NCBI GenBank assembly: GCA_902627245.1
Contig: CACOIH010000004.1
Location: 8,041-72,040, forward strand
DNA from: an uncultured Alphaproteobacteria bacterium
GTDB taxonomy: Bacteria; Pseudomonadota; Alphaproteobacteria; HIMB59; GCA-002718135
Length of the DNA: 64,000 nucleotides
Direction: 5' to 3'
Below the pieces are notes generated by a model. That model ran no database searches. It was not told where the DNA came from and worked only from the letters and a program-made list of their open reading frames with translations. Below are positions 9,066 through 32,817 of the stretch, in pieces. The position numbers and the translations under genes were made by a program. The number at the start of each line of letters is the position of its first letter. The stretch's first letter is position 1.

Positions 9066-9090
9066 TTCTTATAATTTAAATGGAGGAAAT

Positions 9091-10302
9091 ATGACTTTTA
9101 AAAAACTATCTTCATTTCTTACGATTGCTATACTTTCACTAGTTGGTTTTAAAGCATATGCTGCCGATGTTCACGGTGTATTCTGTGGTGGTGAACTTCG
9201 ACCTAATTATGTTGAAATAGCAGATGAGTACATGAAAAATAATCCTGGTGTAAATGTTACTCTCGAGGCTGTTCCTTGGGGTACTTGTCAGGACAAAGTA
9301 ATAAATCTTGCAATAGCTGGTGATCCAGTTGCATTTTCATATGTTGGATCAAGAACCCTAAAAGGTCTTGCAGAAAATGGACATATTTTAGAAACAAATA
9401 TTCCAGCTGATCAAAAGGCGATGTATCAACCTGGTATATTAAACACAGTTACACATATGGGTAAGACATGGGGTTTCCCTCATGCGTTTTCAACTAAAGC
9501 ACTCTTTATGAATTGTGGTCTTTTAGAAAAAGCAGGTGTTGCTTGTGAAGGTCCACAAACTTGGGATGAATTATATTCAATGGCTGAAGCTGTAACAAAA
9601 AATGTTGATGGTGCGTCAGGAATGGGATTAGCTGGCAAAGATTTTGATAATACTATGCATCAATTCTTAAACTACCTATACAGTAACGGAGGACAAGTTA
9701 TTGATCCAATGACAAATGAAATAACTTTGAATTCATCTAACACTGTTGAGACATTAGAATTTTATGGGAAGTTAGCAAATGTTTCTCAAGAAGGTCCTTT
9801 AGCTTGGGAGAGATCTCAATTAACAGAACTATTTAATGATGAAAAAATTGCTATGTATATCAATGGACCTTGGGGAAGAGGTCAGCATAAGGAAGGTCTA
9901 GATGTTAAAACAGTTAGAATTCCTGCTGGACCACAAGGTAGCCAAGGTACACTTCTAATCACTGATAGTATTGCGGTTTTCAATAATACAGGTGTTGAAG
10001 AGCATGCAATGGCATTGGCTAGTATTATTTCATCTGGTGACTCTCAGTACAGTCTAGATACTGATTGGGGTTTAACTCCAATCATGCAATATCCTCAGAT
10101 TGGAAAAGTAGCACCTTACAATGAAGATTACTGGATGATGTTTATTGATGCAATCGGTGATGGTGGACCTGAGCCATTATTTGTTGATTACAAAGCATTC
10201 CAAACTGTAATGAACTCTATGATTCAAGGATCAATCCTTGGAGAAGGAGATGCAGCTGATTTAGTTGCAGAAGCAGCTGAAGAATTGGAAGAATATAAAT
10301 AA
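9091..10302 (+). CDS. Sugar ABC transporter substrate-binding protein (CUT1), probably amino-sugar/N-acetylhexosamine oligosaccharide
   Basis: Signal peptide (AYA-A), PQTWDEL, IAMYINGPW, strong SD GGAGG; nag cluster context. Confidence 0.9.
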   Translation: MTFKKLSSFLTIAILSLVGFKAYAADVHGVFCGGELRPNYVEIADEYMKNNPGVNVTLEAVPWGTCQDKVINLAIAGDPVAFSYVGSRTLKGLAENGHILETNIPADQKAMYQPGILNTVTHMGKTWGFPHAFSTKALFMNCGLLEKAGVACEGPQTWDELYSMAEAVTKNVDGASGMGLAGKDFDNTMHQFLNYLYSNGGQVIDPMTNEITLNSSNTVETLEFYGKLANVSQEGPLAWERSQLTELFNDEKIAMYINGPWGRGQHKEGLDVKTVRIPAGPQGSQGTLLITDSIAVFNNTGVEEHAMALASIISSGDSQYSLDTDWGLTPIMQYPQIGKVAPYNEDYWMMFIDAIGDGGPEPLFVDYKAFQTVMNSMIQGSILGEGDAADLVAEAAEELEEYK

Positions 10303-18698: not shown

Positions 18699-19850
18699 AT
18701 GACTAAGCTTTATGATTTATTTATTATAGGAGGTGGGATTAATGGAGCTGGAATAGCTAGAGACGCAAGTGGAAGAGGTTTTAGTGTTTATTTAGCTGAT
18801 AAAGGAAAAGTTGGCTCTGCTACATCATCATGGTCCTCTAAATTAATTCATGGTGGTCTTCGCTACCTTGAGAATTATGAATTCAAACTTGTAAGACAGT
18901 CCTTAAAGGAAAGAGAAGTAATTACAAAAATTGCACCAAATATAACAAAACCATTACCATTCGTAATTCCTCATTCGAAACAATCAAGATCTAAATTATT
19001 AATAAAATTGGGACTTTTTTTATACGATAATATTGGAGGTAAAACAAATATACCAAAATCCTCTAAAATAGATTTAAAAAAAAATTACATAAATATTTTA
19101 AAACCGCAATTTTCTTTTGGCTTTAAATACTACGATGTTCAGGTAGATGATAAAAAATTAGTGGAAATGAATATAGAAAATGCAAAAAATTTAGGCGCAG
19201 TTATTGCAGAAAATAAAAAGGTAATAAATGCAAAGATTGATAATGATAGCTGGAAAATTCTTTTTGAAGATAAAGAAACAGTTAGAGCAAAAATTTTAAT
19301 AAATGCTTCAGGTCCATGGATTAATGAAACAATAAATAATGTAATTAATATAAGTATAAATAAATCAATAAGACTTGTGAGAGGGAGCCATATTATAGTA
19401 AAAAAATTATATGATGAAGAGGTTGCTTTCACTTTACAGAATTATGATAATAGAATTGTTTTTGTTATTCCTCATAAAAAGGACTATACTTTAATTGGCA
19501 CTACAGAGGTAGATGTGGATAATCCAGAAAATCCAACTATTTCAGATAGTGAAAAAAAATATTTAATAAATTCAGTTAATAATCATTTCATTAAAAATAT
19601 AACAAACGAAGATATTGTTAAAACATATTCAGGAATTAGGCCTTTAATAGAAGATTTTAAAGAGGCTTCTAAAGTAACTAGAGATTATATATTTGATCTA
19701 AATCTACAAAATAAACAAGCGCCACTATTAAATATTTATGGTGGTAAACTTACTACATATAGAAAATTATCTGAAAAAGTAATTGAGCAACTTGAGCCCT
19801 TTTTACCAATTAAAAACACAAGGAATTGGACTCATTTAAAAAAACTATAA
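18699..19850 (+). CDS. glpD: FAD-dependent glycerol-3-phosphate dehydrogenase, short form lacking the usual C-terminal domain
   Basis: IGGGING.GIARDASGRG, ATSS.SSKLIHGGLRYLE, GSHI, SGIRPL, GGKLTTYR. Only 383 aa. Confidence 0.82.
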   Translation: MTKLYDLFIIGGGINGAGIARDASGRGFSVYLADKGKVGSATSSWSSKLIHGGLRYLENYEFKLVRQSLKEREVITKIAPNITKPLPFVIPHSKQSRSKLLIKLGLFLYDNIGGKTNIPKSSKIDLKKNYINILKPQFSFGFKYYDVQVDDKKLVEMNIENAKNLGAVIAENKKVINAKIDNDSWKILFEDKETVRAKILINASGPWINETINNVINISINKSIRLVRGSHIIVKKLYDEEVAFTLQNYDNRIVFVIPHKKDYTLIGTTEVDVDNPENPTISDSEKKYLINSVNNHFIKNITNEDIVKTYSGIRPLIEDFKEASKVTRDYIFDLNLQNKQAPLLNIYGGKLTTYRKLSEKVIEQLEPFLPIKNTRNWTHLKKL

Positions 19851-19948
19851 TAAATATTCCTCTTACACAACTTTTCATTATAGGGCAGAAAAGTTTTATA
19901 AGAGGAATACTTCTCATAGGAGGAAATAATATGAAAACCTTCTGCCCA
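19848..19948 (-). ncRNA. Candidate structured small RNA with anti-Shine-Dalgarno loop
   Basis: TATAAT at 19959-19954 (minus), an 8-bp hairpin with a UUAUUUCCUCC loop, and a long 3' hairpin followed by UUUAUUAU. Several positions that are mismatches on + are G-U pairs on the minus strand. See findings. Confidence 0.5.
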
Positions 19949-19990
19949 TTAGTATTATAAATTATTATTTAATATTAACTAATTAAGCTC

Positions 19991-20004
19991 TCAAAACGCT
20001 TTGG
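19991..20004. promoter_or_regulatory. Putative LacI-family operator (site 3)
   Basis: TCAAAACGCTTTGG, 12/14 identical to the palindrome CCAAAACGTTTTGG at 31734-31747. Confidence 0.5.
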
Positions 20005-20006
20005 AA

Positions 20007-20027
20007 ATGCCCCATTTTATGGGGCAT
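20007..20027 (-). terminator. Hairpin after MalK-type ATPase gene
   Basis: ATGCCCCAT-ttt-ATGGGGCAT, 17 bp beyond the stop; short U-tract. Confidence 0.6.
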
Positions 20028-20044
20028 ATTAATTAACGATTCTA

Positions 20045-21124
20045 CTATTTAAAAGCCTGTTGTGAACTATCAAATAGATGGCATCTATTAGATGGAAATC
20101 CAACTTTGACAGTATCACCGACTTTGATATTTGAATGTCCTTCAGTTTCAACAACTAAAGGTTCTCCTTCTTTTTCTAGATATAAGAAAGTTCCAGAACC
20201 TAATTTTTCAACAACGAACACTTTACTTTCCCATGTTCCATCGGAATCCTGATTCACTAATAGATGCTCTGGCCTAATACCCAGCGTTACAGAGTCACCA
20301 TCTGAAGAGGAAGCTGACATTTTTGGAACTGCAATTTTTGACGCACCCATTATATCGACTTCAGTTTTGTCACCACTTTTTGAAGTTATTTTAGATGAAA
20401 TAAAATTCATTTTTGGTGAACCAATAAACCCTCCCACAAACATATTATTTGGTTTGTCGTAAAGTTCTAGAGGCGAACCTTTTTGTGATACGATACCTGT
20501 GTCTAATACTACAATATCATCTGCAAGTGTCATAGCTTCAGTTTGATCATGAGTAACGTAAATCATTGTTGCCTCAAGTTCATTATGAAGTTTTGCTAAC
20601 TCAACCCTCATTTGAACTCTTAATGCAGCATCTAAATTTGATAGTGGTTCATCAAATAGAAAAACTTTAGGTTTTCTTGTAATGGCCCTTCCAATAGCAA
20701 CTCTTTGTCTTTGACCACCTGACAATTGTTTTGGTTTTCTTTTTAAATAGTCTTCAATTTGTAATATTCTTGCGGCTTCATTTACTCTTTCATTAATTTC
20801 ATCCTTTGACCTTTTTTCTAACTTTAAACCAAATGCCATATTATCAAAAACTGTCATATGTGGGTAAAGAGCATAAGATTGGAATACCATCGCTATGTTT
20901 CTTTGTTTAGGGGGCAAGTCGTTAACTACCTTACCATCTATTGAAATAGTCCCTGAGTTTATATCTTCTAATCCCGCAATCATTCTAAGCATAGTTGATT
21001 TACCACAACCACTTGGTCCAACTAAAACTGTAAATGATTGACTTTTAATGTCTAGAGATACGTCCTTAATAACGTGGACATCTCCAAAGTATTTATTAAC
21101 AGTATTTATATTTATATCTGCCAC
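20045..21124 (-). CDS. MalK/UgpC/AglK-type sugar ABC ATP-binding protein
   Basis: GPSGCGKS, VFQSYALYPH, LSGGQRQR, DEPLSNLD, C-terminal TOBE region. Start moved to GTG 21124, which follows AAGGAGG. Confidence 0.93.
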   Translation of the reverse strand: MADININTVNKYFGDVHVIKDVSLDIKSQSFTVLVGPSGCGKSTMLRMIAGLEDINSGTISIDGKVVNDLPPKQRNIAMVFQSYALYPHMTVFDNMAFGLKLEKRSKDEINERVNEAARILQIEDYLKRKPKQLSGGQRQRVAIGRAITRKPKVFLFDEPLSNLDAALRVQMRVELAKLHNELEATMIYVTHDQTEAMTLADDIVVLDTGIVSQKGSPLELYDKPNNMFVGGFIGSPKMNFISSKITSKSGDKTEVDIMGASKIAVPKMSASSSDGDSVTLGIRPEHLLVNQDSDGTWESKVFVVEKLGSGTFLYLEKEGEPLVVETEGHSNIKVGDTVKVGFPSNRCHLFDSSQQAFK

Positions 21125-21195
21125 TTCATCCTCCTTTGAGCGATCTTTCAAGTGTTAAAATTCAATATTATATAATTAAAATTTTAGAGCAAGAA

Positions 21196-24293: not shown

Positions 24294-25289
24294 TTATCTT
24301 AAACCTGCGTCTGCAAGTGCTTTTACAGCTTGATAATTATTTGTATCTACAAAACCTGCACCAGTGTCTTGATTAATGGCACCAGTTCCAAGTACAGCTG
24401 TTTGACATAAAGACAACACAGGTAAATATCCTTGTAAAAATGGTTGCTGATCAGAGGTTAAGTGAACATAACCTTTCTCAAATGATGACATTATTTGTGG
24501 ACTTGTATCAAAACCAATTTGAAGTAATTCATTTGGTCCATAACCAGCGGCTTTAGCGATACCTTCTGCAACATTCATAATATCACTTCCAGAATGAACA
24601 ATTACTTTAGTCTCAGGATTAGCATTTAATGCTGCTGAAAAAATTGGAATGGTCATATTAGGATCTGAAGCATATTTTGGGTCTCCATCTAATACGGTTA
24701 CTGTCATACCATGTTCTTCAAAGATAATTCTTGCGCCATCTTCTCTCTGTGCTCTTGCGTAGTCACCTATTGGCACCATAACTATTGCATGATCTCCAGC
24801 TTGAAAACCAAATTGTCTAATTGCTTCTCTAGCTAATGCTTTACCTTGAGTAGCTAGATTAGCACCAACGTAACCACCACCATACTTAGCTCTAACACCC
24901 GATGGATCAACATTTTGATAAGTCATTAAAATTCCATTTTCTGCAGCTTGTCTTGCCAAGGGCATTAAAGCTTCATCGCCTGGATGTCCCATCATTGCGA
25001 TAGCATCAACTCCTAGTCCTACAGACTCTCTTAATTGACGAACCATTTTTTCAAAATCCCATTCTGAATAAATAATTTCTGCATCCGCACCAGTATCTCT
25101 AATTGCATTCATTGCTCCAGCCGCAACAATTCCTGCAAATCCCCCGGCTTCAGGTCCCCCAGCATAAAAATGCATTTTTACATCTGAACACCATTTTTCA
25201 CCTAAATCTTGCCCAGTAGGAGCTGCTATTGATTGATACGAAATTGGTACAAAAAAAATAGAAGCCAAAATAATTTTTAAAATTTTCAT
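24294..25289 (-). CDS. Sugar ABC substrate-binding protein (type I periplasmic binding fold)
   Basis: Signal peptide, YVG, GFD, DQQPFLQGY, TGAGFVD; SD GGAGG. Confidence 0.88.
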   Translation of the reverse strand: MKILKIILASIFFVPISYQSIAAPTGQDLGEKWCSDVKMHFYAGGPEAGGFAGIVAAGAMNAIRDTGADAEIIYSEWDFEKMVRQLRESVGLGVDAIAMMGHPGDEALMPLARQAAENGILMTYQNVDPSGVRAKYGGGYVGANLATQGKALAREAIRQFGFQAGDHAIVMVPIGDYARAQREDGARIIFEEHGMTVTVLDGDPKYASDPNMTIPIFSAALNANPETKVIVHSGSDIMNVAEGIAKAAGYGPNELLQIGFDTSPQIMSSFEKGYVHLTSDQQPFLQGYLPVLSLCQTAVLGTGAINQDTGAGFVDTNNYQAVKALADAGLR

Positions 25290-25332
25290 TTTTCCTCCCA
25301 GAATTTAATAATTTTAATAATAATAAATTAAA

Positions 25333-25354
25333 TCCGAAACGTTTTGGAAGTCAA
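25333..25354 (-). promoter_or_regulatory. LacI-family operator (site 2) abutting a -35 box
   Basis: TCCGAAACGTTTTGGA (25333-25348), near-palindrome with central CG. TTGACT is immediately 5' on the minus strand, and TAATTT follows 18 nt later. Confidence 0.72.
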
Positions 25355-30388: not shown

Positions 30389-31696
30389 TTATTTAATTGC
30401 GTCCCAACTATCTTGGATCGCATCAGCTACATCTTGAGCAGACTTTCCATTAGTATAGTCAACCATACCTGTCCAGAAAGTGCCAGCTCCAATTGCACCT
30501 GGCATTAAATCTGAAGCATCAAATCTAAAAGTTGTTGCTCCAGTTAAGATTTCTCCTAATTTTCTAAAAGTATCACTAGCATATTTGCTTCCATCGACAC
30601 CTTTATGAGGAGTTAAGAAGCCACCTTTAGCCATCCAATACTCATGAGCTTCAGGATGCATTAAGAACTTAATAAACTCAATAGTTGCAGCATTATCGTT
30701 TGTTGCAGCTACTAAAGTTCCAGCACCAAGTACCGGAGTACCAAGATCTTTTGTTGCATATGCAGGGAAGTAGAAGAAATCATAATCTACACCAGCTTCA
30801 ACACCTTCAGGAAAGAAAGCTGGTATAAAACTTGCTTGTCTGTGCATCATGCATTCAGCAGGGGATGTAAATAAACCATTTGGTGCATCTCTAAAATCAG
30901 TAGTTGCAACAGCTTTAGATCCACCATTTACAAATTTGTCATTCAATGCGAACGTTCCAAAGAAATTCATAGCTTCAATAACTCTAGGATCATTAAATGG
31001 CATTTCGTTAGATACCCACATGTCATAAACATCAGGAGTATGTGTTCTTAACATAATATCTTCCATCCAGTCAGTTGCAGGCCAACCAGTTGCGGCACCT
31101 GAACCTAGGCCAATACACCACGGTGTATTTCCATCTGAAGCCATTTTTCTTGTTAAAGCAATTAATTCTTCCATTGTTTCAGGAACTTCATAGCCATTAT
31201 CTTCAAAGTTATCTGGTGAATACCAAACTAAACTTTTTACATTTGTTCTAAAGAAAATAGCATTAAATTGATCATTTCCATTTTCATCTGCATATGTAGA
31301 AAGATCAATCCAAGATTGACCTGCAGCATAGTTATCTAATACCATCTGTCTAATATCATCTCCAAGTGGCACAAGACCACCCATAGCAGCAGCATTCGCA
31401 GCTAAACCAGGTTGTGGAAATACAACTAAATCAGCAGCACTACCTGCTTTTAGATCGATCATTACTTGTTGTTCAAAACTATCTGAACCCCCATATTCAA
31501 ATGTAGCTCCAGTAGCTTTTTCAAAAATAGCTCCAACTTCTCTCATAATTTCTTGCTCAGGTGATAACCAAGGGCCAAACATTACAACTTTTTGACCGCT
31601 TAGATCTGGGCCCGTATAATGTCCTCCTGCAAAAGCAGAAAAGCTAATAAAAAATGATGAGAAAGCAGCTAATATTAATTTAAATAAATTTTTCAT
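30389..31696 (-). CDS. aglE: Alpha-glucoside ABC substrate-binding protein
   Basis: FPQPG, KSLVWY, PWCIGLGSGAATGWPATDW.ED, HRQASF, FRFDASDLMP. Confidence 0.88.
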   Translation of the reverse strand: MKNLFKLILAAFSSFFISFSAFAGGHYTGPDLSGQKVVMFGPWLSPEQEIMREVGAIFEKATGATFEYGGSDSFEQQVMIDLKAGSAADLVVFPQPGLAANAAAMGGLVPLGDDIRQMVLDNYAAGQSWIDLSTYADENGNDQFNAIFFRTNVKSLVWYSPDNFEDNGYEVPETMEELIALTRKMASDGNTPWCIGLGSGAATGWPATDWMEDIMLRTHTPDVYDMWVSNEMPFNDPRVIEAMNFFGTFALNDKFVNGGSKAVATTDFRDAPNGLFTSPAECMMHRQASFIPAFFPEGVEAGVDYDFFYFPAYATKDLGTPVLGAGTLVAATNDNAATIEFIKFLMHPEAHEYWMAKGGFLTPHKGVDGSKYASDTFRKLGEILTGATTFRFDASDLMPGAIGAGTFWTGMVDYTNGKSAQDVADAIQDSWDAIK

Positions 31697-31732
31697 TGCT
31701 CCTCCATATTTATAAATATGATTATATATTTT

Positions 31733-31754
31733 ACCAAAACGTTTTGGTTGTCAA
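31733..31754 (-). promoter_or_regulatory. LacI-family operator (site 1) abutting a consensus -35 box
   Basis: Perfect 16-bp palindrome ACCAAAACGTTTTGGT (31733-31748) between divergent aglE and lacI. TTGACA on the minus strand at 31754-31749. Confidence 0.85.
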
Positions 31755-31797
31755 TTTTTCTTTATAATCAATGGTTAATAAGTTATGCATAAAATTC

Positions 31798-32817
31798 ATG
31801 AATATAAAGCAATTGGCTAAAAAACTAGATTTATCAATAACCACTGTTTCAAGGGCTTTAGGTGGTTATTCAGATGTTAGCGAAAAAACTAGAAAAAGAG
31901 TAAAAAAATTTGCATTAAAATACAGTTATAGTCCCAATCCTTATGCAAGTGTTCTAGCTTCTGGGAAAACAAAGACTGTAGGGTATGTCCTTCCGATATA
32001 CGGACTAAATACTAGCACATTGAACCAAGCTAACTTTTTCCAATTTATTTCAGGTATGTCTGATGCGCTATTATCCGAAAGTATTCAATTACAGATTTTA
32101 TTTGCAAAAAGTGAAAATGAGGAAATTGAGTCTTATAAAAAATTAATTTTAGAACAAAAAATCGAAAATATTGTCCTACAAAATATTAAAACTAAAGATA
32201 GACGTATTAATTTACTTAATAAATATAAAGTTAATTATGTGGCTTGGGGAAAAACTAAATCTAATAACAATTTTTCATGGGTAGATTTAGATAATGCAGG
32301 TGCTATTGAAACTATAGTAAATTATTTAATTAAAAAAAAACACAAACATATTTCTTATATTAACATTTCTGAAAAATATAACTTTGCCAGTGAACGAAAA
32401 AATTCTTTTTTAGAAGTATTAAAAAAAAATCATATAATCTTTAATAAAAATTATTATGCTTCTGTAAGATTAGAGGAACCTGAGAAAAGTTTTGAGGTAA
32501 TTAAAGAAATGTTGTTAAAAAATAAAAAAATATCAGCAATAATATGTTCTACTGAGTTTTCAGCACTAAGCGCGATTAAGGCGTGTAATTCTTTAAATTT
32601 AAAAATAGGACATGATATTTCAATAATAACATTCGATGGTCCCTTGGTTAGAGATTTAAGTACACCACCATTGACCGCTGTATCATTTCCGGTCAAAGAG
32701 CTTGGTAAAAAAGCAATTAATATACTTTTAAATAGGGATAAAAATCAAAATAAAATGGAAAATTTTCTCGCTAATGTTGAAATTATAGAAAGAGGATCAG
32801 TACATACATGCAAATAA
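31798..32817 (+). CDS. LacI family transcriptional regulator (AglR-like)
   Basis: IKQLAKKLDLSITTVSRAL HTH, YSPN, DISIITFD, PPLTAV, ERGS. Start moved to ATG 31798. Confidence 0.92.
   Translation: MNIKQLAKKLDLSITTVSRALGGYSDVSEKTRKRVKKFALKYSYSPNPYASVLASGKTKTVGYVLPIYGLNTSTLNQANFFQFISGMSDALLSESIQLQILFAKSENEEIESYKKLILEQKIENIVLQNIKTKDRRINLLNKYKVNYVAWGKTKSNNNFSWVDLDNAGAIETIVNYLIKKKHKHISYINISEKYNFASERKNSFLEVLKKNHIIFNKNYYASVRLEEPEKSFEVIKEMLLKNKKISAIICSTEFSALSAIKACNSLNLKIGHDISIITFDGPLVRDLSTPPLTAVSFPVKELGKKAINILLNRDKNQNKMENFLANVEIIERGSVHTCK

Follow-up and report, generated by a model that had tools for sequence, protein, structure and literature searches.

GcvB and DapZ of enterobacteria repress the mRNAs of family-5 peptide-binding proteins (Dpp, Opp) at the initiation region; they depend on Hfq and pair G/U-rich seeds with C/A-rich sites, and DapZ sits at the 3' end of another gene. 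AbcR1 and AbcR2 (alpha-r15) of the Rhizobiales need Hfq, occur in tandem and are built of several hairpins. As described in PMC4152367, AbcR1 uses two single-stranded anti-Shine-Dalgarno modules on the mRNAs of ABC-transporter binding proteins. The cuckoo/alpha-r14 family (RSs0680, CcsR, NfeR1) is described as two to four adjacent hairpins with CCUCCUCCC in each loop, and the same source describes Firmicutes small RNAs with C-rich loops, whose unpaired C-rich motifs pair with ribosome-binding sites (PMC4615179).

We describe here a family-specific gene predicted to encode a small non-coding RNA, located in the gap between a glycerol-3-phosphate dehydrogenase gene and an ABC ATPase gene in the window, by which we mean the whole 64,000-nucleotide stretch of DNA that was analysed. 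The RNA resembles AbcR1 and AbcR2 in having two CU-rich anti-Shine-Dalgarno motifs and in its predicted targets, the mRNAs of ABC-transporter binding proteins. In contrast to AbcR, it is present as a single copy, no member of the Hfq family was found in its host genus (0 of 22 genomes, namely G000 and 21 others at least 85% complete), one long-range stem takes the place of several hairpins, and the pairing predicted with the main target is much longer, at 17-19 unbroken nucleotides. With the cuckoo family it shares displayed anti-Shine-Dalgarno motifs and an alphaproteobacterial host; however, it has one stem around a 45-nt loop with the motifs UUUCCUCCU and UUCCUCUU, and CCUCCUCCC is absent. 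Compared with GcvB and DapZ, the seed is C/U-rich and would lie directly on the region from the Shine-Dalgarno sequence to the start codon. The C-rich unpaired signature is the same in RNAIII and RoxS/RsaE, which are unrelated in sequence, host and regulon.

When the whole window was searched against Rfam at gathering scores, only two tRNAs were returned. At E values up to 10, positions 19500-20400 gave 10 chance-level matches, the best of 19.9 bits against a gathering score of 45, and no alphaproteobacterial small RNA family was among them. An earlier, sequence-only reading of this DNA had likened the RNA to the AbcR and cuckoo families; as a statement of membership this does not hold for either, given the lack of an Rfam match and the absent motif. 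To judge from its sequence, we consider it on balance probable that the RNA works like AbcR while standing outside the AbcR family.

Organization of the locus

The FAD glycerol-3-phosphate dehydrogenase gene (18699..19850, plus strand, 383 aa; Pfam DAO and NCBIfam NF008899 at 503.5 bits, cut-off 360) is the convergent neighbour of the element. Its upstream neighbour, on the same strand as the element, is a MalK/UgpC-type ABC ATPase gene (20045..21151, minus strand; Pfam, and NCBIfam UgpC subfamily at 476 bits, cut-off 432), the last gene of a CUT2 transporter and GH4 glycosidase operon. The predicted small RNA of about 110 nt occupies 19838..19947 on the minus strand, its predicted ends being the first G of GGGCAG and the last base of a U run. 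A putative TATAAT -10 box (19954..19959, minus strand) lies 6 nt 5' of GGGCAG, and among 72 distinct copies a TAnnnT box was found 4-8 nt 5' of the stem P1 in 70, at 6-7 nt in 61. The promoter was not called by a consensus scan, and its -35 element is weak.

On the minus strand, P1 is formed by GGGCAGAAGG (19938..19947) and its partner UUUUCUGCCC (19883..19892), the 5' half of which doubles as the inner stem of the putative terminator hairpin. Between the two strands lies a near-invariant 41-nt core, UUCAUAUUAUUUCCUCCUAUgAGAAGUAUUCCUCUUAUAAA (19895..19935, minus strand), which was seen in alignments of 25 and of 64 copies, is kept in other genera, and carries both motifs UUUCCUCCU and UUCCUCUU. 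The anti-Shine-Dalgarno motif 1, CCUCC within AUUAUUUCCUCCU (19919..19923), is unpaired in the predicted P1 fold; the CU-rich motif 2, UUCCUCUU (19900..19907), is predicted to sit in the stem of the terminator hairpin. This long hairpin (19845..19919, minus strand), which comprises helix (b) of the sequence-only reading and a CUAUGA/UUAUAG extension, belongs to the minimum-energy fold, and its base overlaps the stop codon of the dehydrogenase gene. It is followed immediately by a U7 run (19838..19844) that is found on the minus strand only. The scan did not call this terminator, as it stops at loops of 8 and the loop here is longer. The minus-strand sequence and motif positions agree with those given earlier, and all three helices then proposed can form in the window.

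Upstream, a hairpin formed by AUGCCCCAU and AUGGGGCAU (20007..20027, minus strand) stands 3' of the ATPase gene. It has a weak U tail and was not called as a terminator by the consensus scan, and its stem is altered on both sides among relatives. Between this hairpin and the -10 box lies a copy of a LacI-type operator, TCAAAACGCTTTGG (19991..20004), about 44-57 nt 5' of the predicted start. The sequence-only reading had pointed to this copy, and the site is real: the 14-bp palindrome CCAAAACGTTTTGG, with a central CG, has three matches in the window (0-2 mismatches) where 0.31 are expected. The perfect copy is 24 nt upstream of the gene at 31771-32817, whose product has a LacI DNA-binding domain, and another is at the promoter of the CUT2 binding-protein gene. 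Repeated as it is near a LacI-family gene and near operons, the palindrome fits a LacI-family operator by its sequence. Among 72 distinct element copies the operator stands upstream of 21, and none is near 50. Five copies have it at -29, where it overlaps the promoter and separates the hairpin from the -10 box. A response to sugar would therefore not be general.

Conservation and distribution

The element occurs as a single copy in 84 of the 105 genomes of the genus and is present in all six genus genomes that are at least 90% complete. With a covariance model it was recovered from 69/79 genomes of the family, from 0/71 genomes of the sister family, and from 0/150 other alphaproteobacterial families. 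Over the syntenic region, 24 other genomes show about 72-76% identity, with positions 19895-19933 of the core nearly invariant. The CCUCC motif is invariant in 64/64 distinct genus copies and in 8/8 copies from other genera; CCUCUU of motif 2 is invariant within the genus and missing in genera g3 and g9. Because the element is single copy across the family, and because its core is invariant against flanking genes that are about 75% identical, it is gene-like and not just a terminator. Conservation and fold thus support the earlier view that the gap holds more than a terminator and contains a minus-strand non-coding RNA gene.

We then considered the neighbouring genes. The ATPase gene lies upstream of the element in every context inspected except two: G168, with no ORF of at least 110 aa upstream on the element strand, and G165, whose contig ends there. 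In the window, in 24 relatives with the same synteny and in the 7 copies from genera g3, g5, g6, g8 and g9, the gene downstream of the element is convergent with it. It is a dehydrogenase gene in the element's own genus and a HAD hydrolase gene in g5, g6 and g8, which rules out a fixed tie to glycerol-3-phosphate dehydrogenase genes. A downstream gene in the same direction was seen in three genomes only, and in each it is a glycerol-3-phosphate dehydrogenase gene, of the FAD type in G033 and NAD-dependent (gpsA type) in G061 and G082. A riboswitch or leader attenuator, which would be expected in the 5' leader of a same-strand gene, does not suit this arrangement, since the downstream gene is convergent nearly everywhere and runs in the same direction in only these three, where a leader would fit as well.

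Fold and covariation

The minus strand, taken as 121 nt, folds at -34.3 kcal/mol against a shuffle mean of -18.85 (z -4.9; 0/200 shuffles as good), and the plus strand at -26.5 kcal/mol (z -3.7; 1/200 shuffles as good). Helix counts were made on an alignment, A1, of 63 distinct rows with slid-helix controls. P1, which is helix (c) of the sequence-only reading, is paired in 97.9% of cells compared with 50.5-71.5% when slid; one of its pairs is GC in 43 rows and AU in 18, and 0/500 shuffles match the observed pairing or covariation score. Two pairs are altered on both sides, a number equalled by 103/500 shuffles, so this measure is not above chance. Across 58 distinct rows that include other genera, 98.3% of cells are paired and three pairs are altered on both sides. 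Covariation in P1 is thin and arises mostly from a few clade-level events.

Hairpin (b) is paired in 87.5% of cells (39-54% when slid), with one pair AU in 43 rows and GC in 15. It is missing from 5 divergent genus copies and from other genera, and P1 and the core persist there. The case that only hairpin (b) is conserved was tested and the opposite was found, P1 with the CCUCC core being the more widely kept. For helix (a), the central C-G pair was found in 1/63 rows, that of the window itself, and no covariation was seen; this helix had been held to expose the loop, and it is not conserved. The idea of two mutually exclusive folds fared better, as P1 and hairpin (b) can both form and both covary. 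The 3' strand of P1 is common to P1 and to the inner stem of hairpin (b). By predicted energies, P1 folds first (-17 to -19 kcal/mol) and the full transcript prefers the hairpin (-33 to -41 kcal/mol). In genera g3 and g9 the downstream hairpins are of another kind, and the P1 3' strand takes part in them as well.

The consensus fold consists of one long-range stem around the 45-nt loop, in which there is no conserved inner helix, together with a weak inner hairpin, P2 (AUAAGA/UCUUAU). P2 was rejected as a defining feature: other genera do not have it, and almost every change seen in the genus alters just one side of the helix. In the hairpin fold, motif 1 is predicted to be unpaired or weakly paired with a 5' GAGG stretch.

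Strand of the RNA

The strand was assessed from base-pair classes, folding energies and flanking signals. P1 contains 145 G-U cells against 1 A-C cell, an excess that points to a minus-strand RNA. The sequence-only reading had made this argument for all helices; it holds for P1, and the counts for hairpin (b) were left out of the strand call, because A1 misaligns the inner stem of that hairpin by one column in one subgroup, which inflates its A-C (76) and 'other' (89) counts. As a 108-nt RNA, the minus strand is the more stable one in 65/72 copies (mean margin 4.8 kcal/mol). When only the P1 domain is folded, the plus strand has the better energy in 68/72 copies (mean margin 2.5 kcal/mol). It is thus the G-U patterns, the fold of the full-length RNA and the signals on either side of it that favour the minus strand.

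The coding potential of both strands was also examined. The 9-codon plus-strand ORF noted earlier is present, and among relatives it varies in frame and length (MKTFCPLVL, MNPLPIIILV, MKLSAQLLL). A minus-strand ORF of 38 codons in the main group was rejected, since indels of 1-2 nt shift its frame and its start codon is not kept. Four RNA runs were matched, as contigs only, and one of them holds 0.03 of the sampled words. A 155-nt contig of RNA library X3 covers 19883-19935 with one mismatch, carries no information on strand, ends or expression level, and extends towards the dehydrogenase gene with main-group sequence. This contig could be DNA or read-through of the dehydrogenase message.

Predicted targets

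The GGAGG sequence was found 3-11 nt upstream of 78 ORF starts in the genome. Solute-binding proteins account for 15 of the 20 most complementary GGAGG starts scanned and for the window's three as well, in line with the transporter focus of the sequence-only reading. The individual complementarities that it listed, at 9082-9091 before the SBP_bac_1 gene, at 25289 before the CUT2 binding-protein gene, and before aglE, the MalK gene and patD, are present; the first two leaders would be weaker targets than the family-5 one described next. It was noted that any CCUCC-bearing RNA would match such ribosome sites.

The longest exact match outside the locus, 19 nt (GGAGGAAAUAAUAUGAAAA), lies at the start of a family-5 binding-protein gene, where it spans the Shine-Dalgarno sequence to the start codon; this length was reached by 1/300 dinucleotide shuffles. 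The best predicted target is thus a family-5 binding-protein mRNA on another contig, and not those named before. Predicted RNA-target duplexes reach -30 to -35 kcal/mol, and the family-5 pairing extends over about 30 nt with bulges, compared with 8-13 nt for other binding-protein mRNAs. The family-5 site is identical in 23/27 genus genomes and in genus g6. The whole leader of the family-5 gene is conserved, and a conserved complementary site is by itself no proof of pairing.

Other genera were then compared. In g8, the RNA reads AUAAUUUCCUCC and the family-5 gene AGGAGGAAAUUAUG, and beyond the RNA and gene sites that genome has no further copy of the 12-mer GGAGGAAATTAT. The family-5 gene was not found in g3, where the best match outside the locus, 21 nt at 95%, falls where a TRAP DctP binding-protein gene begins. 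The changes in g8 and g3 indicate that seed and site differ together. A conserved, predicted unpaired seed is accordingly complementary to a target mRNA beyond chance, as judged from the 19-nt match and from g8 and g3. When the g8 and g9 elements were compared by BLAST with their own genomes, the best matches were not gene starts, and the g9 match was only 11 nt of low complexity. A genome-wide duplex scan that allowed long interior loops was noisy in this A+T-rich genome and was set aside.

Proposed mechanism and alternative explanations

The account towards which we lean, with somewhat better than even confidence and from sequence comparison, is a family-specific, Hfq-independent, trans-acting small RNA that would block translation of binding-protein mRNAs. 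Minus-strand transcription would begin at its own -10 box, near 19947, and end at the long hairpin and U7 run, near 19838. A LacI-type repressor site would lie at or just 5' of the promoter in some lineages, with the same site at neighbouring sugar-uptake operons. The invariant stretch CAUAUUAUUUCCUCCUA would pair with the translation-initiation regions of solute-binding-protein mRNAs, which appear to be nearly the sole carriers of a strong GGAGG site in the genome, and this pairing would block ribosome binding. The main predicted target would be the mRNA of the family-5 (peptide/opine/nickel-type) binding protein. A more elaborate version, in which the RNA would have originated as antisense sequence copied from the 5' end of its own target gene and the two would have co-evolved ever since, with the P1 and terminator folds acting as a switch, is a tentative idea that we think rather doubtful. 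About 35 nt of the plus strand do resemble the family-5 gene from -14 to +15, and the competing folds would set the 3' end of the RNA or the exposure of its seed. If true, this would make the RNA a sensor-like riboregulator in a lineage with almost no protein regulators and no Hfq.

The competing folds may also be read as a conformational switch acting in cis, in which a factor that stabilises P1 would let transcription read on into the neighbouring gene. In most genomes this would be antisense to a convergent dehydrogenase or hydrolase gene, and in a few it would be in the sense direction of a glycerol-3-phosphate dehydrogenase gene. The shared P1 3' strand, the covariation of both helices, the order in which they are predicted to form and the use of the same strand by the hairpins of g3 and g9 all suit such a switch, as do the sense dehydrogenase genes of G033, G061 and G082 and a U run after P1 in G033 and G082. 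We nevertheless judge it unlikely. Almost every copy faces a convergent gene downstream, and which gene that is varies; no inner helix is conserved in the 45-nt loop, and P2 is missing from other genera; no Rfam match was obtained; and a cis switch would not explain the extended match to the start of a distant gene. It is similarly improbable that the element is a 3'-UTR part of the sugar-uptake operon, that is, the tail of the ATPase message, perhaps released from it by cleavage as a 3'-derived small RNA that lacks a separate promoter. The constant spacing of a -10-like box in 70/72 copies speaks against this, as does the operator placed between hairpin and -10 box in 5 copies, as expected for a regulated promoter. 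The position on the same strand directly after the ATPase gene in nearly every context inspected would fit it, however, as would the weak -35 and the intervening hairpin with a poor U tail that was not called a terminator. Such an origin would alter where the RNA comes from and not its mode of action.

Two further explanations assign the region to other functions. On the plus strand, AGGAGG-N7-ATG, the 35-nt likeness to the family-5 gene start and the slightly better fold of the P1 domain alone would suit a ribosome site with a short leader ORF, or the 5' remnant of a binding-protein gene, in the tail of the dehydrogenase message. This is very improbable, because the ORF varies as described, no plus-strand gene follows the core in the window, a remnant would decay whereas no stretch of the region is better conserved than the core, and the G-U against A-C counts, the -10 box and the U run all favour the minus strand. 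A plain two-way terminator would account for a hairpin (b) that lies between two convergent genes and overlaps a stop codon; we give it hardly any credence, since every other part of the element is kept more widely than hairpin (b), P1 and the core are found without it, and a separate hairpin, at 20007-20027, follows the ATPase gene. The trans-acting small RNA directed at binding-protein mRNAs is the reading carried forward below.

Biological implications

We found no published description of this RNA, or of any small RNA in the HIMB59/AEGEAN-169 group to which its hosts belong, although supplementary motif lists of RNA-discovery papers (e.g. PMC6429828, PMC11109978) may include it. PMC10308909 describes the group as abundant, streamlined ocean bacteria with broad sugar uptake, and in a Red Sea mdRNA-Seq set AEGEAN-169 accounted for 4.55% of the 16S reads (PMC5069720). 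Such cells meet dissolved nutrients chiefly through their binding proteins, and a conserved small RNA directed against the ribosome sites of binding-protein messages would cheaply rank nutrient uptake. It would also represent a rare case of trans-acting RNA control in a minimal genome without Hfq. The locus offers a marker that can be mapped in metatranscriptomes, together with a short RNA-target pair that can be tested.

A predicted minus-strand RNA in a convergent intergenic gap

The FAD glycerol-3-phosphate dehydrogenase gene (18699-19850, plus strand) and the MalK/UgpC-type ABC ATPase gene (20045-21151, minus strand) converge on a gap of 194 bp. Read on the minus strand, the gap first shows a hairpin 3' of the ATPase gene (20027-20007), the palindrome-like TCAAAACGCTTTGG (20004-19991) and a spacer rich in A+T. 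There follow TATAAT (19959-19954), six further bases, GGGCAGAAGG (19947-19938), a stretch containing UUUCCUCCU and UUCCUCUU, UUUUCUGCCC (19892-19883), the distal arm of a long hairpin, and U7 (19844-19838). GGGCAGAAGG and UUUUCUGCCC are the 5' and 3' strands of a helix termed P1 here. On re-reading this strand, the coordinates and sequence given in the sequence-only reading were found to be correct. The minus strand (121 nt) folded at -34.3 kcal/mol (z -4.9), a value equalled by none of 200 shuffles, and the plus strand at -26.5 kcal/mol (z -3.7). Searching Rfam with the element region and the window returned no family for the element. The search of RNA runs listed four runs, all as contigs only; one 155-nt RNA-library contig spans 19883-19935 and runs on into the dehydrogenase gene, which shows no more than that the sequence was present in an RNA library.

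It was noted that the dehydrogenase has just 383 aa and covers profile positions 4-391 of 508, so that its C-terminal part is missing; a 383-aa DAO-family ORF occupies the same place in another genome (G098, locus L091). Within the listed TTG ORF of the ATPase gene, a GTG at nine codons from the start is the probable initiation codon (21100-21151), with GGAGG spaced 5 nt ahead of it.

Distribution and genomic context

A 901-nt query recovered the same gene order, 72-76% identical, from 24 further genus genomes, and within this region the plus-strand stretch 19895-19933 was almost invariant. With a 121-nt query, the element was found in 84 of 105 genus genomes, including all six of those at least 90% complete, at one copy per genome except for one genome with matches on two contigs. 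A covariance model identified it in 69 of 79 genomes of the same family: 61/69 in genus g1, 4/4 in g6, 1/1 each in g3, g5, g8 and g9, and 0/1 each in g4 and g7. The same model did not find it in the sister family (0/71 genomes) or in other families of the class (0/150). The exact core pattern occurred in 83 stretches among 185,579 species genomes, all from uncultured marine Alphaproteobacteria, some labelled Pelagibacteraceae, HIMB59 or MarineAlpha5. The element is judged to be a genuine minus-strand gene for a non-coding RNA, confined to this family and not described before, with predicted transcription and ends.

The ATPase gene lies upstream on the element's strand in nearly all contexts examined, the exceptions being G168 (no ORF of at least 110 aa upstream on that strand) and G165 (contig end). 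In most of the genus the downstream neighbour is an FAD dehydrogenase gene that converges on the element; in G033 (L092, 1-1029) the FAD type is inverted to the same direction, and g5, g6 and g8 have a HAD hydrolase gene in convergent orientation. In G061 (L089, 4156-5181) and G082 (L090, 4109-5134), a same-direction NAD-dependent gpsA-type glycerol-3-phosphate dehydrogenase gene replaces the FAD type, so that the slot beside the RNA gene has exchanged one gene for another serving the same pathway step. Because this neighbour differs in identity and orientation between genomes, the element is unlikely to act as the leader of any one fixed downstream gene.

Strand, coding potential and structure

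The sequence-only reading had favoured a minus-strand RNA from its G-U pattern, and P1 bears this out with 145 G-U cells versus 1 A-C. The minus strand was also the more stable for the full 108-nt RNA in 65 of 72 copies, the U run follows the hairpin on that strand only, and 70 of the 72 have TAnnnT 4-8 nt upstream of P1 (at 6-7 nt in 61). As a counter-signal, however, when only the P1 domain is folded, 68 of 72 copies give a better fold on the plus strand, and the promoter scan of the locus made no call. The short plus-strand ORF varies in frame and length among relatives, and indels disrupt a minus-strand ORF. On the plus strand (19845-19960), no U run follows the long hairpin. A dehydrogenase message read past its stop codon would carry a tail fully complementary to the small RNA, and the two transcripts could affect each other.

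Among 64 distinct copies (out of 75 fetched), P1 cells were paired in 97.9% of cases, versus 50.5-71.5% when slid, and none of 500 shuffles reached its pairing or its covariation score. At one pair, 43 rows had GC and 18 had AU; two pairs changed on both sides, which was not above shuffles (103/500 reach this). When other genera were added in a model-fitted alignment (58 distinct rows), P1 was 98.3% paired and three pairs changed on both sides. P1 is the helix first proposed as an alternative fold. The long hairpin likewise held up (87.5% paired versus 39-54% when slid; one pair AU in 43 and GC in 15), while the proposed loop-exposing stem was unconserved, its central C-G pair occurring in 1 of 63 rows. 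An inner hairpin, P2, was predicted by the consensus fold, yet is absent in other genera.

The long hairpin is extended by CUAUGA/UUAUAG, so that U7 comes directly after it; this is intrinsic-terminator anatomy, although a simple terminator scan makes no call. P1 and the long hairpin have one strand in common. The first 72 nt are predicted to fold into P1 (-17 to -19 kcal/mol), and full RNAs with the long hairpin are predicted to prefer it over P1 (-33 to -41 kcal/mol). Five divergent genus copies and the copies of other genera lack the long hairpin; in some of the copies without it a U run follows P1 (G033, G082, G165), and g3 and g9 have another hairpin that takes up P1's 3' strand. The competition between P1 and the terminator is conserved, and leaves room for a possible switch.

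Predicted targets

The majority of gene starts in the window lack a Shine-Dalgarno sequence, the exceptions being binding-protein genes, with GGAGG sites at 9070-9093, 25289-25310 and 31696-31715. Strong sites are rare across the genome, GGAGG lying 3-11 nt upstream of 78 ORF starts. Pfam was run on 20 of the most complementary GGAGG starts, a set leaving out five further starts with at least eight matching bases; 15 belong to solute-binding proteins and the others to ribosomal protein S2, ATP synthase c, ketol-acid reductoisomerase, a peptidase fragment and a protein without assignment. Outside its own locus, the element has its longest exact match in the genome at the start of a 524-aa family-5 binding-protein gene (contig C16): the 19-nt GGAGGAAAUAAUAUGAAAA, a length reached by only 1 of 300 shuffles. 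This site was identical in 23 of 27 genus genomes, the other four retaining 11-13 nt, and its duplexes with the element, which gain additional pairs to either side, are predicted to reach -25 to -35 kcal/mol. Within the genus, the gene's 60-nt leader (C16:1034-1093, L204; orthologues L205-L226) hardly varies and the protein is 92-97% identical, far exceeding the ~75% DNA identity of genes around the RNA locus.

Across genera, G132 (g6) shares the window's RNA seed and has an identical binding-protein site. G142 (g8) carries AUAAUUUCCUCC in the RNA and AGGAGGAAAUUAUG at the gene start, the 12-mer GGAGGAAATTAT being confined to these two places in that genome. The seed is altered in G168 (g9), with a low-complexity gene-start match of 11 nt, and in G129 (g3), where the family-5 gene was not found and the best match outside the locus (21 nt at 95%) is a TRAP DctP binding-protein gene start. 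In G037 (sister family) and G133 (g7), the RNA was not found and the gene start has a different spacer. These differences are suggestive of co-variation, representing few events among related genomes and not proof.

A search for Hfq in 22 genomes (this one plus 21 that are at least 85% complete) found no such gene. In the most likely mechanism, the invariant CU-rich stretch would pair, independently of Hfq, with ribosome sites of binding-protein mRNAs, the family-5 mRNA being the leading candidate among predicted targets. This way of working would be like that of AbcR, but by the membership tests the RNA belongs neither to AbcR nor to the cuckoo family.

A shared LacI-type operator

Allowing at most two mismatches, CCAAAACGTTTTGG has three copies in the window versus 0.31 expected. 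The LacI-type operator noticed earlier at 19991 is a real copy; another (25334-25347) precedes the CUT2 binding-protein gene, and a perfect one (31734-31747) lies 24 nt before a LacI-family gene (31771-32817), between it and the divergent SBP_bac_1 transporter operon. Operator-like sites lie upstream of the element in 21 of 72 distinct copies, 16 starting 55-58 nt before P1 and five at -29, which falls between -35 and -10; a single copy carries such a site downstream and 50 have none. At L072 (G015), the long hairpin is replaced by sequence with a perfect CCAAAACGTTTTGG ~68 nt downstream of the P1 start, not upstream. In some lineages, transcription of the RNA is probably under a LacI-type repressor common to sugar-uptake operons.
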